From NCBI GenBank assembly GCA_038889235.1, contig JAWAHN010000002.1:104288-168287 (forward strand): DNA of 64,000 nt. Direction: 5' to 3'. This DNA comes from Candidatus Jordarchaeales archaeon. Its GTDB lineage: Archaea; Asgardarchaeota; Jordiarchaeia; Jordiarchaeales; Freyrarchaeaceae. A program made the translations under genes and the position numbers. The notes below the pieces were generated by a model. The model was not told where the DNA came from and ran no database searches. It saw nothing but the letters and a program-made list of their open reading frames with translations. This document shows positions 2,859 through 43,060 of this stretch, piece after piece. Numbering within the stretch: position 1 is the first letter of the stretch; each line of letters opens with the position of its first letter.

Positions 2859-4229
2859 TTGGTAGAAATCAGAGAAATCCTCCCTGGGCGTTTTGAAAGA
2901 ATAGGTGCTCACTCACACATAAAGGGTCTCGGGTTGCGAGGACTTAAAGCCGAACTGGTCGCCGACGGCATGGTTGGACAAACAGAGGCTAGAGAGGCGG
3001 CAGGAATAATTGTCAGAATGATAAAGGAGGGCAAGATGGCCGGCCGAGGGGTCCTGCTTGCGGGACCACCGGGGACAGGTAAGACCGCCATTGCCATCGC
3101 TATAGCTAAAGAGTTGGGTGAAGACGTTCCGGTAGTAATGATCACAGGTTCAGAGATATACTCTGAAGAGGTAAAGAAAACCGAGATCCTAACTCAGGTA
3201 TTAAGGAAGGCTATAGGGGTCAGGATACACGAAATAAAGAAAGTGTACGAGGGTGTCGTCAAAAACTTGGACATAACTATGGTGAAGAACCCCTACAACC
3301 CCTACCAACAGATCCCCCAGTCCGCGAAGATAACGATTGCCACTAAGGACGAATCCAAAACTTTCGAGGTTGGACAAACCATAGCTATACGCTTGATCAA
3401 CGAGGGAGTTAGCGTAGGCGACGTGATAATGATCGACGCAGAAACCGGCCGAGTTACACGTGTAGGGAAAGCCGAGTCCCCAGACGTCAAGAAGTATGAC
3501 ATTGAAGCGGAGAAGCCGGTTCCAGTGCCCTCGGGACCAATACTTAAGGAGAAGGAGTTCATCTATACGCTGACCCTCCATGACCTTGACGAGATAAACG
3601 CCAGAAGGAGCAGCTTCTCGATATTCAGCCTGTTTGGAGGAGGAAGAGAAGAAAAAGAAATAGACCCAGAGATACGGGAGAGAGTGAACCAGATGGTAAA
3701 GAACATGGTCGAGGAAGGGCGGGCTGAAATCCTGCCAGGCGTAGTGTTCATAGACGAAAGTCACATGCTCGACATAGAAGCATTCAGCTTCATAGCCAGA
3801 GCTATGGAGTCCGAGCTAGCACCAATAATAATACTGGCGTCGAACAGAGGGTTCGCAAAGATAAGGGGAACAGAGCTTGTGTCACCGCATGGAATGCCAC
3901 TAGATCTCCTGGATAGGCTTCTCATAATAAACACGAGGCCATACACTGAAGAAGAAATACGAGAAATACTGAAAATAAGAGCCAAGGAGGAAAAGATAGA
4001 GCTCAGCGAGGAAGCACTAGAGTACCTAACACAGATAGGAGCGAAAACCAGTCTGCGCTATGCAGTGCAGCTCCTAACCCCAAGCATGGAACACGCTAAG
4101 GAAAACGGACGCAAGAAACTAACCAAGGAAGACGTGCAAGCCGTGGAGAAACTTTTCGCTGACGTTAAGCGTTCAGCCAACTACGTGAGAAATCACGAAA
4201 AAGAGTTCATGGTTTCAGAACCAGCATAA
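2859..4229 (+). CDS. TIP49/RuvB-like AAA+ ATPase
   Basis: 456 aa. The N-terminus (ERIGAHSHIKGLGL) is typical of the TIP49 family. Walker A GPPGTGKTAIA, Walker B VVFIDESHMLD, and an inserted OB-like domain between them. Confidence 0.85.
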   Translation: MVEIREILPGRFERIGAHSHIKGLGLRGLKAELVADGMVGQTEAREAAGIIVRMIKEGKMAGRGVLLAGPPGTGKTAIAIAIAKELGEDVPVVMITGSEIYSEEVKKTEILTQVLRKAIGVRIHEIKKVYEGVVKNLDITMVKNPYNPYQQIPQSAKITIATKDESKTFEVGQTIAIRLINEGVSVGDVIMIDAETGRVTRVGKAESPDVKKYDIEAEKPVPVPSGPILKEKEFIYTLTLHDLDEINARRSSFSIFSLFGGGREEKEIDPEIRERVNQMVKNMVEEGRAEILPGVVFIDESHMLDIEAFSFIARAMESELAPIIILASNRGFAKIRGTELVSPHGMPLDLLDRLLIINTRPYTEEEIREILKIRAKEEKIELSEEALEYLTQIGAKTSLRYAVQLLTPSMEHAKENGRKKLTKEDVQAVEKLFADVKRSANYVRNHEKEFMVSEPA

Positions 4230-5705: not shown

Positions 5706-5795
5706 TGGCGGCCCCGAGGGGACTTGAACCCCTGAATTCCCGGCTTAGGAGGCCGGTGCCCTCTCAGGAACACATCCTGGCTAGGCCACGGGGCC
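5706..5795 (-). tRNA. tRNA-Arg (anticodon CCU) with a small non-canonical intron in the D-loop region; CCA encoded
   Basis: Minus-strand sequence GGCCCCG..CCGGC-CTCCTAA-GCCGG..AGGGG-TTCAAGT-CCCCT-CGGGGCC-G-CCA. It has 7-bp acceptor, anticodon stem-loop and T-arm. It is about 12 nt longer than a standard tRNA, and the excess lies in the D-loop (GTGTTCCTGAGA). Confidence 0.7.
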
Positions 5796-5908: not shown

Positions 5909-6004
5909 GCGGGCGTAGTCCAGCCTGGTCTAAGACGGCGGCCTGCCACGCCGCGGACCCGGGTGGTTAACAAAAACCAGGGATTTCAAATCCCGGCGCC
6001 CGCA
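5909..6004 (+). tRNA. tRNA-Gly (anticodon GCC) with a 21-nt intron between positions 53 and 54 (5964..5984)
   Basis: Acceptor GCGGGCG/CGCCCGC with discriminator A. Anticodon arm GCGGC-CTGCCAC-GCCGC. T-stem CCGGG / CCCGG with T-loop TTCAAAT interrupted by TGGTTAACAAAAACCAGGGAT. A BHB-like fold is present: H2 ccc(g)/(a)ggg and a 4-bp intron hairpin. TATA-like tttaagta lies about 30 nt upstream. No CCA encoded. Confidence 0.7.
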
Positions 6005-9388: not shown

Positions 9389-9889
9389 CTAGTGGATGAC
9401 GAGCACGTCCCTCTCGCTCCAGCGTATCACTTTCTGCGTAGTGCTTCCGAGTACCACGCGCTTAACTCCTGTCAACCCTCTCGTTCCAATTACTATGAGG
9501 TCAACGTTCTCGTTATTCGCCTCTTCAACTATTTTCTCCGCCGGGTCTCCGTAGGTTATCTTCTTCACCACGTCTTCTATACCTTTCTTCTTAGTCAACT
9601 TCTCGGCTTCTTCTAGTATTTTCGAAGCCGCTTGTTCTAAGTAAGATTTAACAAGTCCATAAGATGCCTCAGAGTATTGCTTTACCACTTCTAGTTCTTC
9701 TGTTTTAACAACATTTAACAAAATTATCTGAGAATTATACGTCTTGGCGAGACTTATTGCCCTCTCCAAAGCTCTCTCGGCGTGCTCTGAACCGTCTACA
9801 GGAACAAGTATTTTCTTATACAACTGATCACCCAAAAAGAGTTCTCCCGGCATTCCTTTTAAAATTCTTCTCCACAACGCTTCGCTCAT
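9389..9889 (-). CDS. universal stress protein (UspA family)
   Basis: KILVPVDGSEHAERAL...VDLIVIGTRGLTGVKRVVLGSTT is an ATP-binding Usp signature. Confidence 0.85.
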   Translation of the reverse strand: MSEALWRRILKGMPGELFLGDQLYKKILVPVDGSEHAERALERAISLAKTYNSQIILLNVVKTEELEVVKQYSEASYGLVKSYLEQAASKILEEAEKLTKKKGIEDVVKKITYGDPAEKIVEEANNENVDLIVIGTRGLTGVKRVVLGSTTQKVIRWSERDVLVIH

Positions 9890-10185
9890 CAGCCGCCGTG
9901 CACGACCCCTAGAATCGTTATAACGTCCCCGTCCCGTACCTCGGTATCCAGTCCCTTAAGTACCCTCACATCTCTCTCGTTTAAAAGAATAAGCATTCCG
10001 GGGGCCACCCTTCCCCCATCGACAACTCTTTTGAAAGCTTCTCTGTTAAGAGCTGCTGAAAGCACGTCTCTGACACTCGCCCCCTCACCGACTCTAACGT
10101 TTAACTCTTTAGTCCCAATGATTCTCGCTAACACTAAAGGTAACCGGACCTTAACCTCCATATAAGACACCAGTACTAAACGCAA
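9889..10185 (-). CDS. MoaD/ThiS-family ubiquitin-like small protein (SAMP-like), C-terminal GG
   Basis: The ORF ends ...ILGVVHGG. Beta-grasp-like length. The true start is probably MEVKV (about 10161). The stop overlaps the usp start. Confidence 0.6.
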   Translation of the reverse strand: MRLVLVSYMEVKVRLPLVLARIIGTKELNVRVGEGASVRDVLSAALNREAFKRVVDGGRVAPGMLILLNERDVRVLKGLDTEVRDGDVITILGVVHGG

Positions 10186-10900: not shown

Positions 10901-12071
10901 CTATCCAAATATCGTCCTAATAGTCCTCGACACCACTAGCGGCATCGCCTCAACTATAATTCTCCTGCACCCCTTACGGCCGACGAGTAAGTCTGAAATA
11001 AGTCGCTGTATTTTTCCCGATGAAGCGTCCACCACTCTCCTTCCGCTACCTTTCCTTTTCAAAAAGAAGTTTCTAAGCCAAAGGCTCCACTTCAACTCTC
11101 CTCCAACCTCTCTCATGAGCCGCTTTCTGTACCAATGCAATGTTTCACAGCCTTTCTCATAAACTCTAAGCACACCTTCAGCACCTACAACTGCTGATAG
11201 CATCGCAAAGTACATTCCCTCACCGGTTATAGCCGAAACAGCGCCCGCAGCGTCCCCCACAGCCACCCACCTCCTCCCGCAAACGTTTTCTATAATACCT
11301 GAAAGAGGAACCAATGCTGTCTCAAACTTCCACTCGCCCACCCTTAACCTTGGGCGCCACTAGAGGGTGCCCCCAAACGAAGTTGTCCAGGTATTTCTTA
11401 AGCGAACCCCTAACCTCTGAAAGCAGAGATCCAACTCCAACCACGAGCGAACCCCTTCTAGGAAAAATCCAGGCATACCCGAAAGGCGCGACCCCGCCAC
11501 CATAATAAAAGTAGTTTCTACACCCGAAATCTTCCTCTACACGTTTCTCCCCAACCTCTACAATGTACTGGAAGCACAACCCTAACTGGTCTCTCCTCCA
11601 ATTCCACCCGGAAATAGTTCGCGAGAGCGAGAGGACTCCGTCGGCAAACACTATCCACTCGCACTCGTAATCGTTGCTCCCACGGCATACTACACTTTCC
11701 TCTCTAAAGGAAACCTCTTTCACTCTCTCCCCGCAAAAAACTCTCCCCCCTTCTCCCTCGACTCTTTCAGCTAAGTGAAGTCCAAGTCTAGTCCTGTCAA
11801 CGTTTACCCCTACTCTCTCATTGTAGTCAACCATGAACTGTCTTTCCCCAACGGAAACAGCGACACCATACAACTCTCTTTCAAACACTTCTGAGCTTAT
11901 CTTGAACTTTCTCACGGCTCTCTCGGTGAGCATTCCTCCACACGGCTTCCCTTTGTTTGGCGTCTCCTTCTTGTCAACCACAATAACCCTCAAACCTGAT
12001 CTAGCCAACTCTTCACCGCAAACTAGCCCGGCGGGCCCCCCTCCTACGACGACCACATCGCACCTCAACAC
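10901..12071 (-). pseudogene. geranylgeranyl reductase (FAD-dependent) split across two frames (N-part 11322..12071, C-part 10901..11341)
   Basis: The N-terminal part has VVVVGGGPAGLVCGEELARSGLRVIVVDKKE (dinucleotide-binding fold). The C-terminal part has RWVAVGDAAGAVSAITGEGMYFA (GGR FAD motif). Frame A ends ...KVKGGRVEV* at 11322-24, and frame B continues ETALVPLSGIIENV. The junction lies at a TTT run. Confidence 0.7.
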
Positions 12072-21237: not shown

Positions 21238-23007
21238 CTACTTTTTGAGTGTTTCCGCTAGCTTCTCGAACGGAACGACCTCAACTTTCCATCCAGTGCT
21301 CTTCTCAATGGCATTCTTGATGGGAGCCGCCTCCTCCGGAACTATGAGTTTCCTGTGCTTAACTTTCTTGTCCACATCCTCTCTTTGAATAAACTCTTTC
21401 ACGATTTCCCCTGTGAGCTTCCCTTCTTTCACCGCTTCGCTGACCGATAATCCGTCAACGTTGATTACGAGGATCCACGCATCAATCCGCGCGTCTAGTA
21501 ACGGTACTTTCACCCTGTAGAAGTCTTTTATGTTATTGGTTACGAGCACAACTGGGGAATTTTCGTTCGGGTCTCCGACGTATCTAAGACCGTCACGCGG
21601 CCTGTACTTGGTTTTCAGGAAGTCTGGAATAGCACTCGAGTCTTTCGGCCCAACGTAGACGTCCCATCCGCTTGCGTCCTCCAGTTCACCGGCAAATCTT
21701 GCTGCGAGTCCAGGTATTATGACTGCCCTATGTCTCACTTTCTCTGCTACCTTATACTCGTTGAGTGCATCAGCCATTTTAGCAGCGTTCAACTGTCCTC
21801 CAGCCGCAGACGCCTCTACGCCTATACCTCCAGTATCTATTATCACAAGCCAGGCGTCTATCTTGGCTTGCTCTAGGTCTGACCTAACAACGGAAGCCGT
21901 AGATGCATAGTTTGTTGTTATCATTACCGGGCTGTCCTCGTTAGGGTTACCTATCGCGAAAAGTCCAGGCTCAACAGCTGGGTGTATCCTCGGGTCGGTG
22001 TAAATGTTCTGTCTCAGTGTTGCTAGAGCAAGGAAGCTCCACAGTTCCTTGGAGTTTATTATGAGGAGGTCAGCGTATCTGCAGATAAGGGCCGCTGCTA
22101 GGAAGGTCTCCATGAAAGCGGTTTCCAACTTTTCTGCTTCAGTCGCCGCCTCTTTTCCTATCCATAGGGTCGCTGGAACACCTACCAGCGGCCAGCCAAC
22201 CGACTTATCTCCCCTCTCTATTGCAGCCCTTCTAAGCATCGTGAAGCTATCTATGGTGTCCGCTAAAACTCCTGCACCCCACGCCGTTCCTGGGTCTAAC
22301 GCCACCTGTATTCCAGCACTCGAGAGTGTAACCGCAAGGGACTTAAGCGTGTCAAGATCCCCGGGAGCAGCTACGACAACCGGGCACCCTGCTTCGAGTG
22401 CTATCTCAGCTACTTCCTTCCAGTTATCTCTCGTCGCAGCGTATAGCAGTGGCTTCCTGTTTTTCACAACCTCGACGCCCGCCTTAAGACAAGCTGGATC
22501 AAGTGAGCAAAGTATCAGCGGGTAATTCGTATTGTCCGCTACAATCTTCACTGCTCTAGCGAACGTTGCTGGGTCTCTCGAGACAGACTTGATTGCTATC
22601 GCGTCGAGGCGCAGCTCAGCGCCCACTCTGAAAACCGACCAATTGCTTATCAGCTTAACGTTCTTGATAAGCTCCTCCTCAGTCATTTCGTCATGTACGC
22701 AAACAGCTATAGCCGTTGGATTGAAGTATGTCAGCTCATGCCTGTACATCACTTCTTCTCCGCCTATAACCACCTCGTTCCCGTCACCACCGAACTTCAC
22801 GGGCCTAACTGGCGGTGTAACTAGCTCTTTGAGCTCTTCAAACGCCTTTTTGAACTTTGGATCCGTTGCCAACGGTTTGCAATTTTCAACCTCTAGCTCG
22901 TGCTCGATCAATTTGTAAGCGAAGGCCATGCAGCTATCTAAACCGCACTCACCGCAGTTCGTCTTGGGAAGGTAATTGTATATGTCTAGCGGTTTTAACC
23001 GAGCCAT
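21238..23007 (-). CDS. cdhE: acetyl-CoA decarbonylase/synthase complex subunit gamma (corrinoid Fe-S protein large subunit)
   Basis: The N-terminus (LKPLDIYNYLPKTNCGECGLDSCMAFAYKL) is the [4Fe-4S] domain of CdhE/AcsC. A TIM-barrel region follows. The C-terminal domain is tandemly duplicated (SPVMITTNYA...IDAWLVIIDTGG and SPVVLVTNNI...IDAWILVINVDG), giving 589 aa against a usual length near 470. Confidence 0.8.
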   Translation of the reverse strand: MARLKPLDIYNYLPKTNCGECGLDSCMAFAYKLIEHELEVENCKPLATDPKFKKAFEELKELVTPPVRPVKFGGDGNEVVIGGEEVMYRHELTYFNPTAIAVCVHDEMTEEELIKNVKLISNWSVFRVGAELRLDAIAIKSVSRDPATFARAVKIVADNTNYPLILCSLDPACLKAGVEVVKNRKPLLYAATRDNWKEVAEIALEAGCPVVVAAPGDLDTLKSLAVTLSSAGIQVALDPGTAWGAGVLADTIDSFTMLRRAAIERGDKSVGWPLVGVPATLWIGKEAATEAEKLETAFMETFLAAALICRYADLLIINSKELWSFLALATLRQNIYTDPRIHPAVEPGLFAIGNPNEDSPVMITTNYASTASVVRSDLEQAKIDAWLVIIDTGGIGVEASAAGGQLNAAKMADALNEYKVAEKVRHRAVIIPGLAARFAGELEDASGWDVYVGPKDSSAIPDFLKTKYRPRDGLRYVGDPNENSPVVLVTNNIKDFYRVKVPLLDARIDAWILVINVDGLSVSEAVKEGKLTGEIVKEFIQREDVDKKVKHRKLIVPEEAAPIKNAIEKSTGWKVEVVPFEKLAETLKK

Positions 23008-23022
23008 AATGACTCACCTTTT

Positions 23023-24219
23023 CTAAACTCTAGCAGTAACCCAGTTGAGAAGTGGGGGCACCTCCTCTTTCTTAGAGGACGTGAGGTACTCCACGAACGT
23101 CTTGAATATTTGTGCACTCGCTGGGTGAATCATCATGAAGACATCACACCCTACTAGTGACAGTGCTAGCGCCGTTATAGCCTCCCATATAGGCCCTCTG
23201 AACCTCTGGAGACCCCACTCGTCTCCCTTTTTCTTGTCACTCATGTAAGCCTCTCTCGCACCCCAAGCGTTGGTCGTTCCGGACGAAAGCGGCATCTGTA
23301 AGTCTGCATCCCCCTTGAGAGCTGAGAGCCTTATTCTTTCGTACACGCTGAACGAGTACTCCAACCCGTAGCCTAAAGCAGCCGTGGTTGCGTCCTGCAC
23401 AATCCTATTTTTAGGCATGCCTGCATCCATTATGAGCTTGTTAAGCTTCTTTTGGTTGTTCACGTCCAGCTGTGTCCAAGATAGAACGTTGTGCCCATAC
23501 TTCTTAGCCGCGTCAACTATCCTCTTCCAGTCAAGGTTAAGTGACGCTGAGTTGAGCATCAGTCTTTCTCCCTCGGAAACCGCAGCAGCAGCCTCGAGAA
23601 CTTCAGGGTCCTTGTCTGGGTTCCCCGACCCACCTATAAGTATTGGTGTATCGACTGCTTGCAGAACATCCTCTACGACTTTGGCCGCCTCTCTAGCAGG
23701 CGTGTTCTTAACATATGGGTCTGTGCTTATCAGATGCACTGTTACCAAGTCTGCGCCGAACTCGTTAATCGCCTTCTTAGCCCAGTCTGCTGGATCCTCC
23801 ATAACGTCTCCAAAGTGCTCCACTACAGGCTTCGGAAGGCTTATCGGCATGTCGAAAACGTCGAAAGCCACGACGGGCCTGTTAGGATTGTTGAACTCAA
23901 ACCTATAGAAAGCAGGGGCTTTCTCGCCACCGATCTTAATGACCTTCTTACGCGTGCCTCCCTCAGCTCTAGTAGCTCCAAACTGGACCTCAACTATTTC
24001 CCCTGGGTACGACTCAATTGGACGCTCGAATTTTTGCTCGATGAGGGCTGCAGGTATTCTCGCCCTAGCTGCAGGAGGGAGCGCAGCAGCGAACATTCCT
24101 GGTATAACCTTGAGAACCAATTCTTCTGCTTCTATGACGACATCTTCAAGTTCCAGCTCCTCATATTTTCCAAGAATTTCCAGTATCTTCTTGCCTAGTG
24201 CTAATTCGTCTTTAGACAT
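23023..24219 (-). CDS. cdhD: acetyl-CoA decarbonylase/synthase complex subunit delta (corrinoid Fe-S protein small subunit)
   Basis: 398 aa. Its position between cdhC and cdhE, and TIM-barrel pterin-binding-like sequence features, support the call. Confidence 0.75.
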   Translation of the reverse strand: MSKDELALGKKILEILGKYEELELEDVVIEAEELVLKVIPGMFAAALPPAARARIPAALIEQKFERPIESYPGEIVEVQFGATRAEGGTRKKVIKIGGEKAPAFYRFEFNNPNRPVVAFDVFDMPISLPKPVVEHFGDVMEDPADWAKKAINEFGADLVTVHLISTDPYVKNTPAREAAKVVEDVLQAVDTPILIGGSGNPDKDPEVLEAAAAVSEGERLMLNSASLNLDWKRIVDAAKKYGHNVLSWTQLDVNNQKKLNKLIMDAGMPKNRIVQDATTAALGYGLEYSFSVYERIRLSALKGDADLQMPLSSGTTNAWGAREAYMSDKKKGDEWGLQRFRGPIWEAITALALSLVGCDVFMMIHPASAQIFKTFVEYLTSSKKEEVPPLLNWVTARV

Positions 24220-25643
24220 CAGTCTCCCCTGCTCTTATCGCTTCTCCTAATGATGAGCTTGTCCACTTTGATCTTCACGTTCTTGAAGATTAACTGCACT
24301 CCACCTCCGATGGCAGGCACACCTTCGACTGGAACAACGATCTCCGGCACGACGGCCCCGGTTGTCGCGGCTTCAGCCGCAGCCTCAGCTTTAGCTGCAG
24401 CCTCGACAGCCTTCCACCTCTCAACCACTGGGTGCCCTTTAGCCTTAAGGAACTCCTTAAGTTCCGCAGTGTTAGATACATCTTTCTCGGTTGCAATTTT
24501 GTCTCTAAGATGCTCAGGTATCGCGTCAAGAACTCTTTCCTTGACGTAAGACGGCAGCCATACAACTCTGTTCCAACCACCTTCAGCCTGCAGGAACTTC
24601 GGGCTCCTCATATACTCTATAGCGATGCCGAGGAAGCCCTCAACCTGCTTGCCACCACCAGTCTGGTTGGCCATTGTTGAGAACGGCAGACCGTTGACTG
24701 CAACACCTTGATAATTCCTGTCAACGATACCTATGCCGTCAACCTCTGGGATATAGAACGCTATAGCTTCAAAGCACCCACAGCTCGTGTGCGGATGCCC
24801 AAACATGCTATAGAGGAAAACCCTCTGAATTTCACCAAGAGACCTCTCCTTGGCAGCGGCATTTACCCCACTGTACTCTCCTACCACTGGGTCAAGCAGC
24901 TCACCCTTCTCAACCTTGAAGTTTGGACCCTTCGGGTCAACTCTAGCAGCTGCTCTAGCATCAAACCAGTTAATGGAACCACAAAGTGACACCCTGTTAG
25001 GAGTGATAATACACACGTGCGTCGGTGCGAAGCTCTGGCATAACACGCACCCATAAAACTCCTCCACGTCCTCATCCTTTAATCCTCTAGCCCTAGCATC
25101 TCTCGCCTCGTAGATCTTTAGGGCCTGCTCGTACATCTCCTCAACTTTCTTCGGGTCCGTAATATACGTCACCTGTATCTTCTCAATGAACGGGAACTCG
25201 GCCTTATAGAGCCTTGCCAAAACGCCACCGATCTGCTTGAAGCTATTCAATCCTTTCTTAAAGGAGGACTGAGATATGCGGATCCAGATGTCATACCTCT
25301 GGTTAAGGTGCATGACCCCCTCAATATAGTTTGTAAACTCGTGTATACGCCTCTCAAGTACCCCTTCAAGGTCTTTTTCCAATTGCGCCCCTGCAACCTC
25401 AACAAGTATGCCAAGCGGGTATGAACCACCTTGTTCCAAGTCCTTTATATCCGGCCCAATTACACTGACCCTGCCGTCCTCTATTTCGTTGAGACCTCTC
25501 ACTTGTACCAGTTCGAACTTGTGTTTGACCTTCGGACCGCCGAACTCTACCTGCATATCTTTGCTGCGGATTCTCTCTCCTTCGTAGACCGGACCAACAT
25601 CCACGGGGCATATATCCTTAAACGAGGACGCCATGGGCACCAC
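24219..25643 (-). CDS. cdhC: acetyl-CoA decarbonylase/synthase complex subunit beta (acetyl-CoA synthase, A-cluster)
   Basis: 474 aa with HTSCGCFEA (the Cys-Gly-Cys A-cluster ligands) and upstream Cys ligands. A GGAGG Shine-Dalgarno and TATA-like boxes lie in 25660-25760. Confidence 0.85.
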   Translation of the reverse strand: MVPMASSFKDICPVDVGPVYEGERIRSKDMQVEFGGPKVKHKFELVQVRGLNEIEDGRVSVIGPDIKDLEQGGSYPLGILVEVAGAQLEKDLEGVLERRIHEFTNYIEGVMHLNQRYDIWIRISQSSFKKGLNSFKQIGGVLARLYKAEFPFIEKIQVTYITDPKKVEEMYEQALKIYEARDARARGLKDEDVEEFYGCVLCQSFAPTHVCIITPNRVSLCGSINWFDARAAARVDPKGPNFKVEKGELLDPVVGEYSGVNAAAKERSLGEIQRVFLYSMFGHPHTSCGCFEAIAFYIPEVDGIGIVDRNYQGVAVNGLPFSTMANQTGGGKQVEGFLGIAIEYMRSPKFLQAEGGWNRVVWLPSYVKERVLDAIPEHLRDKIATEKDVSNTAELKEFLKAKGHPVVERWKAVEAAAKAEAAAEAATTGAVVPEIVVPVEGVPAIGGGVQLIFKNVKIKVDKLIIRRSDKSRGD

Positions 25644-27277: not shown

Positions 27278-28729
27278 TTGGCGAAAGGCGAGGAAACACC
27301 ACTCCCAAACAAGTACGAGAAATTCAGTGAGTGGTATAACGAGATATTGCAAAGGGCTGAACTAATAGACTTACGTTACGGTGTTAAAGGTTTCATTGTT
27401 TACAGGCCGAATGCTGCAATGATAATGAGGCAAATTTACCGTTTTTTCGAAGAAGAACTTGACAAGCTTGGACATGCCCCCTGCGTTTTCCCTGTTGTTA
27501 TTCCTTTGGAGTACTTCGAGAAAGAGGCTCAGCACATTAAGGGCTTTCTTGACGAAGTGTTCTGGGTCACAAAGGCTGGGCGACATGACCTCAACAAGCC
27601 ACTATTGTTGCGTCCGACATCCGAAACTGCGATGTACCCTCTCTACGCTTTGTGGATTAGGAGCTACAAAGATCTTCCACTAAAACTATACCAGTCTAAC
27701 TCTGTATACCGGTATGAAACGAAGGCAACCAAACCCCTTCTAAGAGGGCGAGAATTTTTCTGGATAGAGACACACTGCGCTCACAGAACCAAGGAGGACG
27801 CTGAGCTACAAGTGTTGGAAGATATGAAGGTCATGAGCAGAGCCCTTCATGAGGTCTTAGGGATTCCCTTCATGCTCTTCGAGCGACCACCATGGGACAG
27901 ATTCGCCGGAGCCGACAAAACTTACGCTTTCGACGTCCTGCTCCCAGATAAATCCGTACTACAGGTGGCTACCACGCACATACTCGGAGAGAATTTTTCC
28001 AAGGCTTTCGAGATAACCTACAAAGACGAGGATGGAAGACTAAAATACGTCCAGCAAACGTGCTTCGGAATAGGAATTTCAAGAATACTGGCTACGCTAA
28101 TAAGTGTTCATGGAGACGAATACGGGCTAATTCTTCCATTCGACGTCGCTCCAACACAAATAGTAATAGTTCCGATAGTTTTCAAAGAGAACAGGGAAGT
28201 CGTTCTGGATAAATGTAAATCTCTCTTCGCGAAGCTCAGAAGCAAAGGATACCGGGTTGTGCTCGATGATTCCGAAGAACGCCCGGGAGCTAAATTCTAC
28301 AAATGGGAGCTTCTAGGAGTCCCCATAAGGATAGAGATCGGTCCAAAAGACATTGAAAAAGGTGTTGTAACGCTTTTCAGGCGCGATACTAGGGAAAGGA
28401 TCGTCGTTGCAGAACAAGAGGTTGAAAACAAGATTGCGGAGCTAGGAAAGGAGATCTTGAATGTTTTGAGGGAACGGGGTGAAAAGTGGCTTAAAGAAAA
28501 CTTGAAAGACATTAGAAGCAGGGAGGAACTCATGGAGCTAGCGAAGAACGGTGGAATAGGCCGGATGGCTTTCTGCGGAAGAGAAGAATGCGCTGCCGAA
28601 ATAAAGATCACAACAGGCGGCTTCGAAGTTAGAGGGGTCATGGTAGGGGAAAAGTGGGGCGACTTAGGCGCCTGTGCCGCATGCGGCAAGGAAGCAAAAC
28701 AAATAGTTTACGTTGCCAAGCCATACTAG
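27278..28729 (+). CDS. proS: prolyl-tRNA synthetase (archaeal/eukaryotic type)
   Basis: Class II motifs including RPTSETAMYP. The C-terminal zinc-binding domain has CGREECA...CAACG. Confidence 0.9.
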   Translation: MAKGEETPLPNKYEKFSEWYNEILQRAELIDLRYGVKGFIVYRPNAAMIMRQIYRFFEEELDKLGHAPCVFPVVIPLEYFEKEAQHIKGFLDEVFWVTKAGRHDLNKPLLLRPTSETAMYPLYALWIRSYKDLPLKLYQSNSVYRYETKATKPLLRGREFFWIETHCAHRTKEDAELQVLEDMKVMSRALHEVLGIPFMLFERPPWDRFAGADKTYAFDVLLPDKSVLQVATTHILGENFSKAFEITYKDEDGRLKYVQQTCFGIGISRILATLISVHGDEYGLILPFDVAPTQIVIVPIVFKENREVVLDKCKSLFAKLRSKGYRVVLDDSEERPGAKFYKWELLGVPIRIEIGPKDIEKGVVTLFRRDTRERIVVAEQEVENKIAELGKEILNVLRERGEKWLKENLKDIRSREELMELAKNGGIGRMAFCGREECAAEIKITTGGFEVRGVMVGEKWGDLGACAACGKEAKQIVYVAKPY

Positions 28730-28807: not shown

Positions 28808-30150
28808 GTGCGATTATTGCTTTTCTTTGCAGATCTTCACATTCACAGCAAATATAGTAGGGGTAGCAGCTCCAACATGGAGCCTCGCATTCTACGTTCT
28901 TTTGCTAAAGTAAAGGGCCTTAACCTATTAGGGACAGGCGACTTCTCCCACCCTAGATGGTTTGCCGAGTTGAGGGAGAAGCTTGAGGAAGTAGATGAAA
29001 CGGGCTTCCACACGTTGAAGGAAGGTGAAAAAGACGTTTTCTTTCTGCTTTCGAACGAGGTGAACACTAGTTTTGAGTTTGAAAATGAGGCTAAAAACAT
29101 TCACCACGTCATATTAGTCGAAAACTTCGACGTTGCCGAACAAGTGAACGAGGTCTTATCGAAGTACGGGAACCTTGAAGTCGACGGAAGGCCTTCCCTT
29201 AAGTGTTCCCCCGCAGAACTCGTCGAGTCACTCATCCAAGTAGATAGGGACATACTAGTAGTTCCAGCCCACCTGTGGACGAGTTGGTTCGGGGCGCTAG
29301 GCGAACGCGGCTTCAACAGTTTGGAGGACTGCTACGGCGACATGGTAAGACACATATACGCCGTTGAAACAGGCCTCAGCTCTGATCCTCCAATGAACTG
29401 GAGGCTTAGCGCCCTCGACAAGTATGTCCTGATGAGCAACAGTGACTCACACAGCCCATGGTCCTGGAGACTTGGGCGGGAAGCGAATGTTTTCGACCTT
29501 GATGAGCCTTCATTCCACGAAATTGTTGACGCCATAAGGAGTAGAAATAGGAAAAAGATTGTCATGACTATCGAGGTCGCCCCTGAATACGGAATCCCCC
29601 TCCACTCCGGAGCGTGGACGTAAAATATCACTATGATGGGCATAGGGGCGACCGCCAGGGACATAACGGCGTAGATGTATGCATGCACCCAAAGGAAGCT
29701 ATAAAACTTGGGAACATTTGCCCTGTTTGCGGGAGGAAAATGACCATAGGCGTACAGCACAGGGTTGAAGAGCTTGCTGACAGGGAGGAAGGTTTTGTCC
29801 CTAAAAACTTCATACCGTTCAAAAGATTAATCCCACTCGCCGAGTTGATAGCTGTCGCCTTAGGCACCGAGAACCTTCACACACAGAAAATTAGAGAGGA
29901 GTATGACCGTCTTGTGAACAAGTTTGGGAACGAGTACAAGGTTTTACTGGAGGCCTCGATGGAAGACCTCCTAAAGGTCACACATCCAAAGATAGCCGAA
30001 CTCATAATACTCAACAGAGAAGGACGGCTGAAGATAAAGCCGGGATTCGATGGAGTTTACGGCAAAGTGGTATTAGAGGAGTCTCAAGAGGAAAAGGGTG
30101 TGGAACGCCGTGTAAAAGTCGGACAACAGAGTCTCGACAGTTACTTCTAA
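28808..30150 (+). pseudogene. PHP-domain protein (TIGR00375-like, PHP + Zn-ribbon) split across two frames (28808..29623 and 29614..30150)
   Basis: ADLHIHSKYS is the PHP His motif. The second part carries KYHYDGH and the CPVCGRKMTIG Zn ribbon. The frame switch lies at about 29594-29622, next to a C5 homopolymer (29596-29600). Combined length is about 449 aa, which fits intact family members. Confidence 0.65.
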
Positions 30151-38423: not shown

Positions 38424-38936
38424 TTACTTTTTCTTTTTCACAAGTTCCTTAGCTTCCTCTATCCAAGAAGCAAGTTTCTTCTCGCTTATTCCCGTGGCTT
38501 CAGAGAGGAGTTTTGCGTCGCTTTTCGCCAGTTGTTCTAGGTTCTCTATGCCTGCGTTCTTGAGCTTCTCAGCAGTCTTCGGTCCAAGCCCTTTAAGAAT
38601 GGTTAGCGGTGTTCCTTCCTCTACTACCTCGACCTGTTCCACTTTCGCCTTCTCAACTTTTTCGGCGGGCGCTTCTTCAACGGCTTTTTCCTCCTCGCTA
38701 ACTTCTTTAATAGCTTTTCCGGCTTTCAGCACATCTACTAGTTTTCTTAGTGCCTCAACGTTTTCCTTGTGGACGCTCCTCCTTCTTTTATCGACCATTA
38801 CCCCGATTTTCTTCGCGTCATGTAATGTAAGGTTTGCCTCCCTCAGTTCGCCTAAGCTGAAACCGCGCCCCTCTCTAACCTTGTTTAAGCTCTTCGGAAC
38901 ACGCACCATGGGCTTAATCTTCTCCATGTAAGCCAC
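38424..38936 (-). CDS. rpl13e: 50S ribosomal protein L13e with C-terminal helix-hairpin-helix extension
   Basis: VRVPKSLNKVREGRGFSLGELREANLTLHDAKKIGVMVDKRRR is the L13e core. The C-terminus has GLGPKTAEKLKNAGIENLEQL (HhH). Confidence 0.6.
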   Translation of the reverse strand: MAYMEKIKPMVRVPKSLNKVREGRGFSLGELREANLTLHDAKKIGVMVDKRRRSVHKENVEALRKLVDVLKAGKAIKEVSEEEKAVEEAPAEKVEKAKVEQVEVVEEGTPLTILKGLGPKTAEKLKNAGIENLEQLAKSDAKLLSEATGISEKKLASWIEEAKELVKKKK

Positions 38937-40288: not shown

Positions 40289-41542
40289 ATGGGTAAAACG
40301 CTTGCCGAAAAAATTCTAAGTCTCGCCTCTGGAACTGACGCCTACCAAGGAGACATAGTGGTAGCTAACGTAGACTTTGCCATGGCGCAGGATGGCACAG
40401 CCCCCTTGGCGATTGAAGCCTTCAAGAGTATGGGGGTAGAAAAAGTCTGGGATCCCAGTAGGATAGCGCTCGTCATAGACCACAACGCCCCCAGTCCCAA
40501 CGAAGGTGTCTCGAAGCTACATAAGCTGATGAGAGAGTGGGCTACAAGTCAAGGGGTAATCCTTTACGACATAGGGGAAGGTGTCTGCCACCAAGTTATG
40601 GTGGAGCGTGGACACGTAAAACCTGGAAGAGTCGTCCTAGGAGCCGACAGCCACACATGCACTTACGGTGCGCTCGGCGCCTTGGCTACTGGTATAGGGT
40701 CAACGGAGATGGCTGCTGTCTTTGCAAGCGGCCAGCTCTGGCTGAGAGTCCCAGAAACGTTCCTTGTAATTGTCGAGGGTAAGCTTCCCAACGGGGTCTA
40801 CGCTAAGGACATTGTTTTGTCAGTCATTGGGAAAGTTGGAGCTGACGGGGCAACCTACATGGCCGTTGAGTATACGGGAAGTACCATTAAGGAACTCAGC
40901 CTGGACGGACGGTTAACTCTCTGCAACATGGCTGTAGAAATGGGTGGAAAAACGGGTCTAGTGGCCCCCGACGAGAAAGTGGTCTCCTTCCTAAAGGAGA
41001 GAGGGATAACAGGCGGATACGAGTTACTTGCAAGCGACGAGGATGCAGATTTTGCCGAAAAGCTAGAGCTCGACGCCGAGGACCTAGTGCCGGTCGTTGC
41101 ATGTCCCCACTCTGTGGACAATGTTAAATCAGTAGAAGAAGTTGAAGGAACACCCGTTAGCCAAGTATTCATAGGAACCTGCACTAACGGTAGAATAGAA
41201 GATCTAAGAATCGCTGCAAGAGTTATGAAAGGAAGGAAAGTCAGGGTGAGAACAATAATTGTGCCAGCTTCCAGAGAGGTTTACCTCAAAGCCTTGAGAG
41301 AAGGACTCATTGAGGCATTCGTAGAGGCAGGCGCTACCGTCTGCAACCCTGGATGCGGCCCCTGCGTCGGGACACACCAAGGGATACCGTCACCCGGCGA
41401 CGTTGTCATCTCCACGGCTAATAGAAACTTTAAGGGGAGAATGGGTTGTGACGACGCCGAAATATACCTTGCCTCACCTCACACCGCTGCGCTGGCAGCG
41501 GTAACTGGAGAAATAAGAGACCCTAGAAGGGGAGACATATGA
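40289..41542 (+). CDS. leuC: 3-isopropylmalate (or homoaconitate) dehydratase large subunit
   Basis: Aconitase-family large subunit, 417 aa, with the Cys triad region CGPCVG. Stop TGA overlaps the leuD ATG (ATGA). Confidence 0.85.
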   Translation: MGKTLAEKILSLASGTDAYQGDIVVANVDFAMAQDGTAPLAIEAFKSMGVEKVWDPSRIALVIDHNAPSPNEGVSKLHKLMREWATSQGVILYDIGEGVCHQVMVERGHVKPGRVVLGADSHTCTYGALGALATGIGSTEMAAVFASGQLWLRVPETFLVIVEGKLPNGVYAKDIVLSVIGKVGADGATYMAVEYTGSTIKELSLDGRLTLCNMAVEMGGKTGLVAPDEKVVSFLKERGITGGYELLASDEDADFAEKLELDAEDLVPVVACPHSVDNVKSVEEVEGTPVSQVFIGTCTNGRIEDLRIAARVMKGRKVRVRTIIVPASREVYLKALREGLIEAFVEAGATVCNPGCGPCVGTHQGIPSPGDVVISTANRNFKGRMGCDDAEIYLASPHTAALAAVTGEIRDPRRGDI

Positions 41543-42077
41543 TTAGGGGAAGGGTTTGGAAGTTTCCGGACAACGTTAACACAGACTATATTATACCTGG
41601 AATGTAGCCTGAAAAGTCAGGCTACCTGGAAAGTACAAGTTTAAGACGCTCGACATGGACGAACTGGCTAAACACGCTATGGAAGGCATAGACCCAAGCT
41701 TCTCGAAGAAAGTTAGAAAAGGCGACATAATCGTAGCTGGGAAAAACTTTGGTTGCGGCTCGAGCAGAGAGCAAGCTCCACTAGTCCTCAAACACGTGGG
41801 GATCTCCTTGATCATAGCGGAAAGCTTCGCCCGAATATTCTACCGCAACTCCTTTAACATAGGACTTCCCCTCCTCATATGCAAAGGGATAACCGAAGCC
41901 ACTGACGAAGGCGACGAGCTAGAAGTAGATGTTAGCAGCGGTCGCATACGCAACCTGACAAAGGGCACCGAGTTGTATGCAAACCCAATACCTGACTTCC
42001 TGATGGAGATTGTCAACTCTGGTGGTCTTTCCGAGTACTACAAGAAGCACGGGCGGTTCCCATGGCAAAAAAGGTAG
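41539..42077 (+). CDS. leuD: 3-isopropylmalate dehydratase small subunit, interrupted by a 29-nt BHB intron (exons 41539..41602 and 41632..42077)
   Basis: Exon 1 encodes [21 protein letters not shown], then TAG at 41605. Exon 2 (a different frame) encodes [28 protein letters not shown]...[14 protein letters not shown]. Splicing out 41603..41631 yields a 169-aa LeuD colinear with archaeal LeuD. Confidence 0.8.
41603..41631 (+). other. predicted 29-nt bulge-helix-bulge intron inside leuD mRNA
   Basis: H1 is tac (41594-96) / gta (41633-35). H2 is ctgg (41597-600) / ctgg (41626-29). The bulges are aat (41601-03) and aaa (41630-32). H3 is an 8-bp hairpin 41604-11 / 41618-25 with loop aaaagt. Cleavage after the 2nd bulge nt on both sides removes exactly the 29 nt that the protein alignment requires. 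Confidence 0.75.
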
Positions 42078-43060
42078 GCTACATAGAGGGCGACGGCATA
42101 GGACATGAAATAGTTCCAGTAACTATTGAGATACTCGAAGAGTTAGTCCCACAAATAGAGTTGATACCGATAGAAGCCGGGCTAAACTACATGAAGAAGA
42201 CAGGGAAAAACGTACTCATAAGCGACGAGGCGTTAGAGCTTGCAGCAACATGTGACGCCATACTCAAGGGACCGACGGAAACGCCTCCCGGGCCTGGAAG
42301 TCCGAAAAGCGTAGTAGTCACGCTAAGACAAGCATTAGATCTTTACGCCAACGTACGCCCCTTCCAGTACCCGGGAAAAATAGACGTCATAATAGTCAGA
42401 GAGAACACGGAAGATCTGTACAAGGGAATAGAGCATAGGTTGTCGTCCGACGTCGCCATCGGCGTACGAGTAATAACCCGAAAAGGATCCAAAAGAATAG
42501 CTGAATACGCCTACAAGATGGCGTCCCAATTCGGAAGGCGCAAAGTTACCATAGTCCACAAAGCAACAGTCATGAAAGAGACGTGTGGCCTCTTCAGGGA
42601 GACTTGTCTCGAAGTCGCATCCCAATATCCTTCAATTGAAACGGAAGAAATGCACGTCGACACTATAGCGATGAACTTAGTTCTTAACCCGGCGCGCTTC
42701 GACGTTATACTCACAACCAACATGTTCGGAGATATACTCTCCGACCTCTGTGCTGGCATAGTTGGAAGCATAGGGTTATGCCCGTCGGCAAATGTGGGAG
42801 ATAAAAACGCCATGTTCGAAGCAATACACGGAAGCGCGCCGGACATAGCTGGAAAAGGCATAGCGAACCCCGCGGGAATAATACTCGCAGCAGCACTCAT
42901 GCTCGACTACCTAGGATACACGACCCAAGCAAAAAAGCTCAGAGACGCCACACTAAGCGTGGTAACCGAAAAAGTCAAAGTGACCCCCGACCTAGGCGGC
43001 AACGCCACGACAAGACAAATGGCGGAAGAAATACTTCGAAAAGCCAAGCAAGAAAGCTAA
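42062..43060 (+). CDS. leuB: 3-isopropylmalate dehydrogenase (isocitrate/isopropylmalate dehydrogenase family)
   Basis: N-terminal [19 protein letters not shown] and the [14 protein letters not shown] signature. Confidence 0.85.

Follow-up and report, generated by a model that had tools for sequence, protein, structure and literature searches.

The 64,000-nt stretch of archaeal DNA analyzed here (the window; contig JAWAHN010000002.1) carries a leuC-leuD-leuB cluster in which leuD is divided into two reading frames by a 29-nt insert that is probably a bulge-helix-bulge (BHB) intron. The stop codon of leuC overlaps the leuD ATG at 41539 as ATGA, and leuB overlaps the end of leuD, indicating that leuC, leuD, and leuB form one operon. 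The open reading frame (ORF) 41539..41607 consists of 22 residues and is ended by TAG 41605-07; what follows of LeuD lies in a different frame, and gene callers take it as a 140-aa ORF (41655..42077) with ATG 41655 as its start. Within the insert, the exon-1 frame meets TAG 41605-07 and the exon-2 frame TGA 41610-12, and removal of 41603..41631 (29 nt) produces a 169-aa LeuD-family protein. The original prediction, made from the letters of the window alone, was that the frame from ATG 41539 (overlapping leuC) hits TAG 41605 after 22 residues, which was confirmed in the ORF list, and that leuD is split into two frames by 29 nt at 41603..41631, which was confirmed from the ORFs, the deletion, and a profile match.

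40289..41542, plus strand: leuC-family large subunit (isopropylmalate/homoaconitate dehydratase); TIGR01343, 603.7 bits, full length
41539..41602, plus strand: leuD-family exon 1; 21 codons and the first base of the Lys22 codon
41603..41631, plus strand: predicted 29-nt intron TGTAGCCTGAAAAGTCAGGCTACCTGGAA; placed by the frame-restoring deletion and the cut rule
41632..42077, plus strand: leuD-family exon 2, stop codon 42075-77 included; frame joined by the 29-nt deletion; TIGR02087 match
42062..43060, plus strand: leuB-family dehydrogenase; ORF list and profile search

Four contigs, each from an independent sample, encode the same LeuC protein (two from Logan assemblies and two from NCBI metagenome-assembled genomes, MAGs), and 4/4 carry the identical insert, indicating that the leuD insert is real DNA and not an assembly error. 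In the MAGs GCA_038887235.1 and GCA_038894675.1, LeuC (MEM4446908.1) and LeuB (MEM4446909.1) have consecutive NCBI accessions with no gene called between them, and leuD is therefore absent from both proteomes.

The spliced 169-aa protein matches TIGR02087 (LeuD/DmdB subfamily; cut-off, 109) in one stretch over positions 1-156/157 with 225 bits, while the 140-aa ORF alone matches positions 26-156 only, with 186 bits; exon 1 contributes ~40 bits and profile positions 1-25. The expectation that deletion of 41603..41631 would give a sequence colinear with archaeal LeuD N-termini is borne out by this unbroken match, and the alignment of both translations to the profile, which had been proposed as a check, shows that the N-terminal 22-aa peptide fits the profile start. 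The scores for TIGR02084 (leuD equivalog; 203 vs. cut-off 246) and HacB2 (homoaconitase small subunit; 215 vs. 230) are both sub-threshold. By profile, assignment of the window gene to the LeuD family is certain, and the name leuD applies at the level of the family only, the substrate being isopropylmalate or homoaconitate.

The RNA at the insert site reads, 5' to 3', UAC CUGG AAU (GUAGCCUGA AAAG UCAGGCUAC) CUGG AAA GUA, and its elements are as follows.

41594..41596, plus strand: outer helix h, 5' strand TAC (exon 1); partner 41633-41635; its three pairs present in 8/8, 7/8, and 8/8 variants
41597..41600, plus strand: central helix H, exon strand CTGG; pairs with 41626-41629; U.G becomes C-G in relatives
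41601..41603, plus strand: 5' bulge AAT; predicted cut 41602/41603
41604..41625, plus strand: intron hairpin h'; 9-bp stem GTAGCCTGA/TCAGGCTAC, loop AAAG
41626..41629, plus strand: central helix H', intron strand CTGG; seen in the minimum free energy (MFE) fold, the alignment, and RNAalifold
41630..41632, plus strand: 3' bulge AAA; predicted cut 41631/41632; AAA or AGA among variants (middle base)
41633..41635, plus strand: outer helix h, 3' strand GTA (exon 2); partner of 41594-96

The site has the two bulges (AAU and AAA, on opposite strands) and the 4-bp helix (CUGG/CUGG, with the pairs C-G, U.G, G.U, and G-C) of an archaeal BHB intron, and both flanking helices are present, h' with 5-9 bp among the variants, but in the window h is weak, at 3 bp (UAC/GUA); it lengthens to 6 bp in the variants whose codon there is TAT. 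Unconstrained MFE folding of the window site also gives the hairpin, H, and the AAU bulge (-15.8 kcal/mol, z = -2.6). Rfam gave no match at the insert site, and a repeat search in the window gave no second copy of the intron hairpin. A 9-nt exact direct repeat, TACCTGGAA, is present at 41594-602 and 41623-631, because of which ten different 29-nt deletions yield the same protein and the protein evidence of the window alone leaves the exact cut position ambiguous. The repeat extends to a near-perfect 13-nt one (TACCTGGAAnGTA; 41594..41606 and 41623..41635), both strands of the BHB being the same sequence.

The spliced LeuD protein was used as a query for homologues, and the DNA behind the close calls was then read. 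All close homologues (83 to 96% identity) are called as shortened proteins of 131-151 aa, and full-length calls appear from 75% identity down. An insert is present at exactly the same codon in seven further variants, which makes eight with the window, and the lengths are 23, 25, 27, 27, 27, 29, 29, and 30 nt. The length is not tied to the reading frame, and the 27-nt inserts are in frame yet carry TAG or TGA. The seven further variants are listed below.

L016, 30 nt: CCTGG AAT GTAGCCTGA-AAAAC-TCGGGCTAC CCGG AAA
L005, 27 nt: CCCGG AAT GTAGC-TTTATACCAT-GCTAC CCGG AAA
L008, 29 nt: CCTGG AAT GTAGCC(T)CGC-CTC-GCGGGCTAC ACGG AGA
L015, 27 nt: same design
L014, 23 nt: same design
L011 (= L023), 27 nt: CCCGG CAT GTG(A)CCGC-TCTAG-GCGGCGC CCGG AAA
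L022, 25 nt: same design

The insert-bearing lineages have diverged to 73-88% nucleotide identity in leuD. The leuD genes of L019-L021 and L024-L026 (Jordarchaeum sp. and Freyarchaeota; 73-75% LeuC identity) have no insert, and intron-less relatives read ...ATH CCN GGN AAR TAY AAG... at the site, i.e., CCNGGNAAGTAY. A pattern scan of metagenomes for more variants of the leuD intron found four contigs, all already in the set. Judging from this distribution, the intron was most likely gained in one Jordarchaeales sub-lineage, with the sister genomes and all other archaea examined lacking it.

The BHB geometry is kept in all eight variants, although the loop and part of the stem differ. When folded without constraint at 37 and 70°C, 7/8 variants form the 4-bp H, the 3-nt bulge, and the hairpin. 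At 37°C L014 folds into the complete two-bulge BHB; its Tyr codon is TAT, which gives the outer helix six pairs. The outer helix is likewise present at this temperature in L022 and L011, where the 3' bulge folds as 2 or 4 nt. When a 13-pair structure was applied to the MAFFT alignment of the eight variants, 93.3% of the cells were paired, as against 24-39% when the 3' partners were slid by 1-3 columns. Three hairpin pairs have changes on both sides (compensatory), and where relatives change CCTGG to CCCGG, they do so in both copies of the repeat. In 500 column shuffles the observed pairing or covariation score was never reached, and RNAalifold by itself recovers H, the bulge, and h'.

The same eight variants were used to locate the cut, by taking pairs of offsets from the ends of H and H' and asking which of them restore DYIIPGKYKFK at the length of intron-less homologues. 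Only the pair (2,2), which would cut behind nucleotide 2 of either bulge, is valid in 8/8 variants, and in L008, L014, and L015 no other solution exists. Symmetric cuts of this kind would thus give a sound exon junction in every variant. The junction codon, Lys22 (A/AG), is invariant in 110/110 full-length homologues, while the middle base of the 3' bulge varies (AAA/AGA), a change that is harmless if the base is intronic and turns Lys into Glu if it is coding. In a crystal structure the scissile bond lies between A14 and A15, A15 being the third bulged nucleotide (PMC12397907). The original prediction held that protein and BHB agree to the nucleotide, which is not so for the window alone, with its ten equivalent deletions, but holds once the eight variants are compared, the search of related genomes for the same insert having been among the checks it proposed. 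As for the parts of the BHB, the 3-bp helix, CTGG/CTGG, and the bulges aat and aaa stand as predicted, but the hairpin has 9 bp with a 4-nt loop and not 8 bp.

The cut rule also bears on bypassing of the type known from T4 gene 60, in which ribosomes would take off at CCU-GGA, slide over ~29 nt, and land on the repeated CCU-GGA while the RNA stays intact. The window has what such a mechanism needs at first sight, namely, a matched repeat (TA-CCT-GGA-A) flanking the insert, a stop one codon past the first GGA, and then a stable hairpin. However, GAG follows the landing GGA in L008, L014, L015, and L022, which would place Glu at the invariant Lys22 (110/110), and in L011 and L022 the take-off codon is GGC while the landing codon is GGA. 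The insert in the endonuclease Q gene (described below) is of the same design and has no in-frame matching landing codon, and the feature that is conserved, the BHB geometry, is not needed for bypassing. We know of no description of bypassing in archaea, which also counts against it, and we regard bypassing as very improbable.

The ratio of nonsynonymous to synonymous differences (pN/pS) was summed over the 28 pairs among the eight variants. It is 0.047 in exon 1 (codons 2-21; pS 0.62), 0.060 in codons 22-29 (KYKFKTLD, from the insert to ATG 41655; pS ~0.4), where amino acids are kept through synonymous changes, and 0.119 in the rest of exon 2 (pS 0.65), and both exons are open in 8/8 variants. 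These values leave very little room for a leuD pseudogene disabled by a palindromic insertion with a target-site-like duplication, which is the de facto treatment of the gene by annotation pipelines. The 9-nt direct repeat around a palindromic core looks like the trace of such an event, and the NCBI annotation has no LeuD entry between LeuC and LeuB. Against this, the insert has been retained while leuD diverged to 73-88% nucleotide identity; neither exon has closed, with pN/pS of 0.05 to 0.12 at a pS of ~0.6, i.e., near-saturated synonymous change; the junction stays exact while the insert length shifts from 23 to 30 nt; and CTGG becomes CCGG in both repeat copies together, the behavior of pairing partners and not of relics.

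A split gene, in which the 22-aa peptide and a 140-150 aa protein assemble without splicing or the short form is active alone, likewise has only a slight chance of being correct. Gene callers do propose an ORF of 139-151 aa with its own start, at ATG 41655 or, in L005, at an intron-internal ATG, but these called starts vary among relatives and match an internal Met of intron-less homologues. The purifying selection on codons 22-29 (KYKFKTLD; pN/pS 0.06) indicates that the stretch upstream of ATG 41655 is translated; the exon values as a whole argue against a protein starting at 41655, in agreement with the earlier opinion that a standalone ORF of ~150 aa from this ATG is unlikely. A split gene would, moreover, leave unexplained the conserved BHB and why exon 1 ends exactly at the Lys22 codon. 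Least probable of all, and close to negligible, is translation of the insert by ribosomal frameshifting or by recoding of TAG/TGA as pyrrolysine or selenocysteine: stop-codon recoding has been reported in Jordarchaeia (PMC9723677) and the 27-nt insert is in frame in three variants, but no single shift bridges an exon-1 frame ended by TAG 41605-07 and an exon-2 frame closed upstream by TGA 41610-12, recoding cannot handle inserts of 23, 25, 29, or 30 nt, and the insert is not conserved as a protein sequence.

We therefore favor, with a probability of roughly 87%, the interpretation that the leuD insert is a BHB intron cut from the mRNA by the splicing endonuclease, with subsequent joining of the two exons. 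We infer splicing itself, as well as cleavage by EndA and ligation by RtcB, from what was observed above: how the insert is built, that it is conserved, that selection acts on both exons, and that a single cut rule fits. The end of exon 1 (UAC-CUGG) would pair with the intron end CUGG and the exon 2 start GUA, EndA would cut behind nucleotide 2 of either bulge, at 41602/41603 and 41631/41632, an RtcB-type ligase would join the exons, and the intron would probably be circularised. The junction would rebuild the Lys22 codon (A/AG) and give the 169-aa protein, while unspliced mRNA would give the 22-aa peptide only, ended at TAG; because leuB overlaps the end of leuD, our guess is that unspliced mRNA probably also lowers leuB translation. 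EndA is generally taken to be universal in archaea. The enzyme of Asgard archaea is a broad-specificity (alpha-beta)2 EndA with a loop tied to a wide substrate range (PMC5829648). The leuD intron is most likely a tolerated passenger that must be removed, and we claim no regulatory role for it. As to its origin, two tandem copies of a half-palindrome fold into a BHB automatically, so a short insertion with target duplication could conceivably have created a spliceable intron in one step; this is an idea only, and the EndoQ intron of Jordarchaeum has no such repeat, meaning that a duplication origin would not be general.

Several observations weigh against a spliced leuD intron. The outer helix h has just 3 bp in the window, L022 has one mismatch in it, and H, which has 4 bp in 7/8 variants, consists in L008 of three pairs with G.A in place of the fourth. 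The covariation sample is eight related sequences, which keeps its statistics modest. Neither EndA nor RtcB was among the Pfam-scanned ORFs of the window, no search being aimed at either gene, and no spliced leuD of this clade is present among 5.8 billion database proteins. The labels of related MAGs conflict (Nitrososphaerota, Thermoproteota, Bathyarchaeota, and Jordarchaeia/Jordarchaeales, with one EndoQ relative labelled "Lokiarchaeia"). Finally, a loose BHB scan (h of at least 3 bp, H of 4 bp with G.U allowed, h' of at least 5 bp, intron up to ~70 nt) found 77 motifs in the window as compared with 47 to 71 in ten shuffles (~58 by chance), so frequent a motif being weak evidence when taken alone. 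For one given position and length, the chance is ~1e-5 (~58 chance hits/128,000 positions/~55 lengths). That a BHB should coincide with the frame-restoring coordinates is thus already unlikely by chance, and the main weight comes from the comparison with relatives.

A second gene of the window appears to be split in the same way. The adjacent same-strand ORFs 28808..29623 and 29614..30150 (plus strand) are the two halves of endonuclease Q (EndoQ), which was found through this arrangement without being sought; the BHB scan had not given it. The element and its counterparts in the three relatives read in detail are given below.

29595..29623, plus strand: putative EndoQ intron of the window; 29 nt, H ACGG/ACGU, bulges AAU and AAA
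L106, 79% identity to the window N-half: 29 nt, stem CCACC/GGTGG
L107 (Jordarchaeum sp. GCA_052745115.1), 67%: 29 nt, perfect H AUGG/CCAU, bulges AAA/AAA, 8-bp hairpin
L109, 64%: 28 nt, the L107 hairpin with a U.G to C-G change

Deletion of 29595..29623 gives a 437-aa protein that aligns with residues 8-416 of P. furiosus EndoQ (5zb8) in one stretch, and the alignment crosses the junction (...PEYG/KYHYDGHR). The (2,2) rule restores YGKYH in L106, L107, and L109. Compared with Jordarchaeum, the H of the window's own lineage (ACGG/ACGU) shows one compensatory pair change and one G.A, and the MFE fold there favors a one-base shift in register that would leave the frame broken; the motif of the window is accordingly a relaxed one. 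The NCBI annotation of the window EndoQ is a 268-aa N-terminal fragment only. The fifteen closest homologues of the N-half (63-100% identity) are truncated at 239-268 aa, except for one 318-aa call, and the shortened proteins are labelled Jordarchaeales, Jordarchaeum, Freyarchaeota, and "Lokiarchaeia," while the more distant matches (58% identity or less) are nearly all full length. In GCA_052745115.1 the EndoQ gene carries its intron and leuD does not (L020); the EndoQ intron is therefore the older and more widespread of the two, and the leuD intron was most simply acquired inside the window's sub-lineage. The EndoQ site is interrupted by 28-29 nt inserts of canonical BHB form in Jordarchaeum, Freyarchaeota-type, and "Lokiarchaeia"-labelled genomes (L106-L110).

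The window-wide BHB scan, alone or combined with ORF fusion, is noisy and found no further intron, and in the Pfam scan of ~60 window ORFs no other family was cut short where an ORF ends. Setting the two introns aside, the strongest BHB-like motif lies within an uninterrupted ProRS ORF (27278..28729), at 27523..27553 (plus strand, 31 nt), and has an outer helix of 8 bp, H CGAG/CUUG, bulges AAA/ACG, and a hairpin of 7 bp. It was rejected as an intron, since its excision would break the frame; it may be a chance motif or a cleavage or regulatory site. A geranylgeranyl-reductase-like gene (10901..12071, minus strand) is also divided, into ORFs of 249 and 146 aa with a 17-nt overlap and a break near 11335. 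Here an intron was rejected as well, because a one-base skip (GGG-C-GAG) joins the ORFs colinearly with PDB 3oz2; the 1-nt frameshift is a sequencing error, a pseudogene, or programmed shifting.

The best match to LeuC among species representatives is Candidatus Jordarchaeia MAG QC4 (89%), in which the leuD intron is present; the LeuB cluster representative (90% identity clusters) and a 100%-identical EndoQ fragment are named Jordarchaeales; and the next relatives are Jordarchaeum and Freyarchaeota, taxa within the Asgard kingdom Promethearchaeati. With moderate confidence, these matches point to an uncultured hot-spring Jordarchaeales archaeon as the host. The window has two tRNA genes.

5909..6004, plus strand: tRNA gene with ~21 extra nt in the T-arm, read as a BHB with H CCCG/AGGG and stem GGTT/AACC; Rfam above threshold
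5710..5795, minus strand: tRNA gene with extra nt in the D-arm region; Rfam score weak

One tRNA in the window is above the Rfam threshold, and one of the two genes is called by ARAGORN with an undetermined anticodon. The extra sequence at non-canonical positions in both genes is read as introns, which fits the report of introns in 92 to 95% of tRNA genes, often at non-canonical sites, in Freyarchaeia and Atabeyarchaeia, the text of which mentions only tRNA introns (PMC11291895). The window also encodes CO dehydrogenase/acetyl-CoA synthase CdhC with two CdhD-family genes (21238..25643, minus strand), a TIP49/RuvB-like ATPase (2859..4229, plus strand), a Urm1/ThiS-like small protein (9889..10185, minus strand), and a ribosomal L13e-HHH fusion (38424..38927, minus strand).

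What is new here is a pair of conserved putative introns in coding sequences, those of leuD and endoQ, i.e., new genes for a known kind of BHB intron, for which cbf5 is the precedent. They indicate that BHB introns are able to enter everyday genes of metabolism and repair and to be kept there under selection. Two split genes of BHB design are present among roughly 60 genes of the window, the EndoQ case being conserved throughout the class, and if this rate holds, there would be tens of such introns per genome, most of them presumably annotated as frameshifted pseudogenes or truncated proteins. It is a tentative suggestion, which we hold to be rather less probable than its opposite, that BHB introns have spread into many protein genes of Jordarchaeia/Freyarchaeia and that mRNA splicing by the tRNA machinery is routine in a prokaryote. 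The two genes provide a concrete reason for pseudogene or truncated annotations in Asgard MAGs, which affect metabolic reconstructions, e.g., by an apparent loss of leucine biosynthesis. The host lineage is near the ancestry of eukaryotes and is already known for interruption of 92-95% of its tRNA genes. The question is raised of how, under coupled transcription and translation, an operon mRNA is spliced before ribosomes reach the stop codon in the intron.

The rarity of introns in archaeal protein genes, on which the original prediction had remarked, agrees with the searched literature (PMC7714728, PMC10485636). In that literature only two archaeal mRNAs, cbf5 and HVO_1309, have been reported with endonuclease-dependent processing, and a 2023 review expected more (PMC10485636). 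The literature searched, which included few subscription journals, holds no report of such introns in leuD, endoQ, or Asgard archaea, the reports being of tRNA introns only. The intron of cbf5 pre-mRNA was reportedly described by Watanabe in 2002 and by Yokobori in 2009. BHB introns of 16-44 bp occur in cbf5 of Crenarchaeota (Aeropyrum, Sulfolobales, and Desulfurococcales), are limited to one clade, and are often misannotated (PMC2738675). Compared with cbf5, the leuD intron is likewise short (23-30 nt vs. 16-44 bp), of BHB design, in a coding gene, and with no ORF inside; it is clade-limited and absent in relatives, with some alleles in frame and others not, misannotated by pipelines, and found in hosts with an (alpha-beta)2 endonuclease. 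The two differ in that cbf5 is an RNA-modification gene of Crenarchaeota and leuD an amino-acid biosynthesis gene of what are probably Asgard Jordarchaeales, that the cbf5 motifs are described as relaxed and the leuD motif is close to the strict hBHBh', and that splicing was shown experimentally for cbf5 and is deduced from sequence for leuD.

The HVO_1309 mRNA of Haloferax volcanii has a BHB intron in its 5' untranslated region (PMC7714728). Like the putative leuD substrate, it is an mRNA on which the tRNA splicing endonuclease acts at a BHB motif, but its intron lies in an untranslated leader and interrupts no reading frame, and its host is a euryarchaeon with an alpha2-type enzyme. T4 gene 60 resembles leuD in its short gap with a hairpin and a stop between matched GGA codons, whereas the take-off/landing match fails in leuD relatives. 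HAC1/XBP1 shares with the splicing proposed for leuD a short mRNA intron, an endonuclease that recognises stem-loops, joining by tRNA ligase/RtcB, and a changed frame; its nuclease is, however, IRE1 and not EndA, and it is stress-regulated in eukaryotes, while no regulation is seen for leuD. The non-canonical tRNA introns of archaea, including those of Freyarchaeia/Atabeyarchaeia and Thermoproteales, have the motif and size range of the leuD intron and the cut positions predicted for it, a likeness in motif and not in demonstrated sequence similarity. Unlike these introns, that of leuD is in a translated operon mRNA, so its splicing would compete with ribosomes. Once spliced, the leuD site would be a hairpin with a 7-nt loop cut after the 6th base, as at tRNA 37/38.

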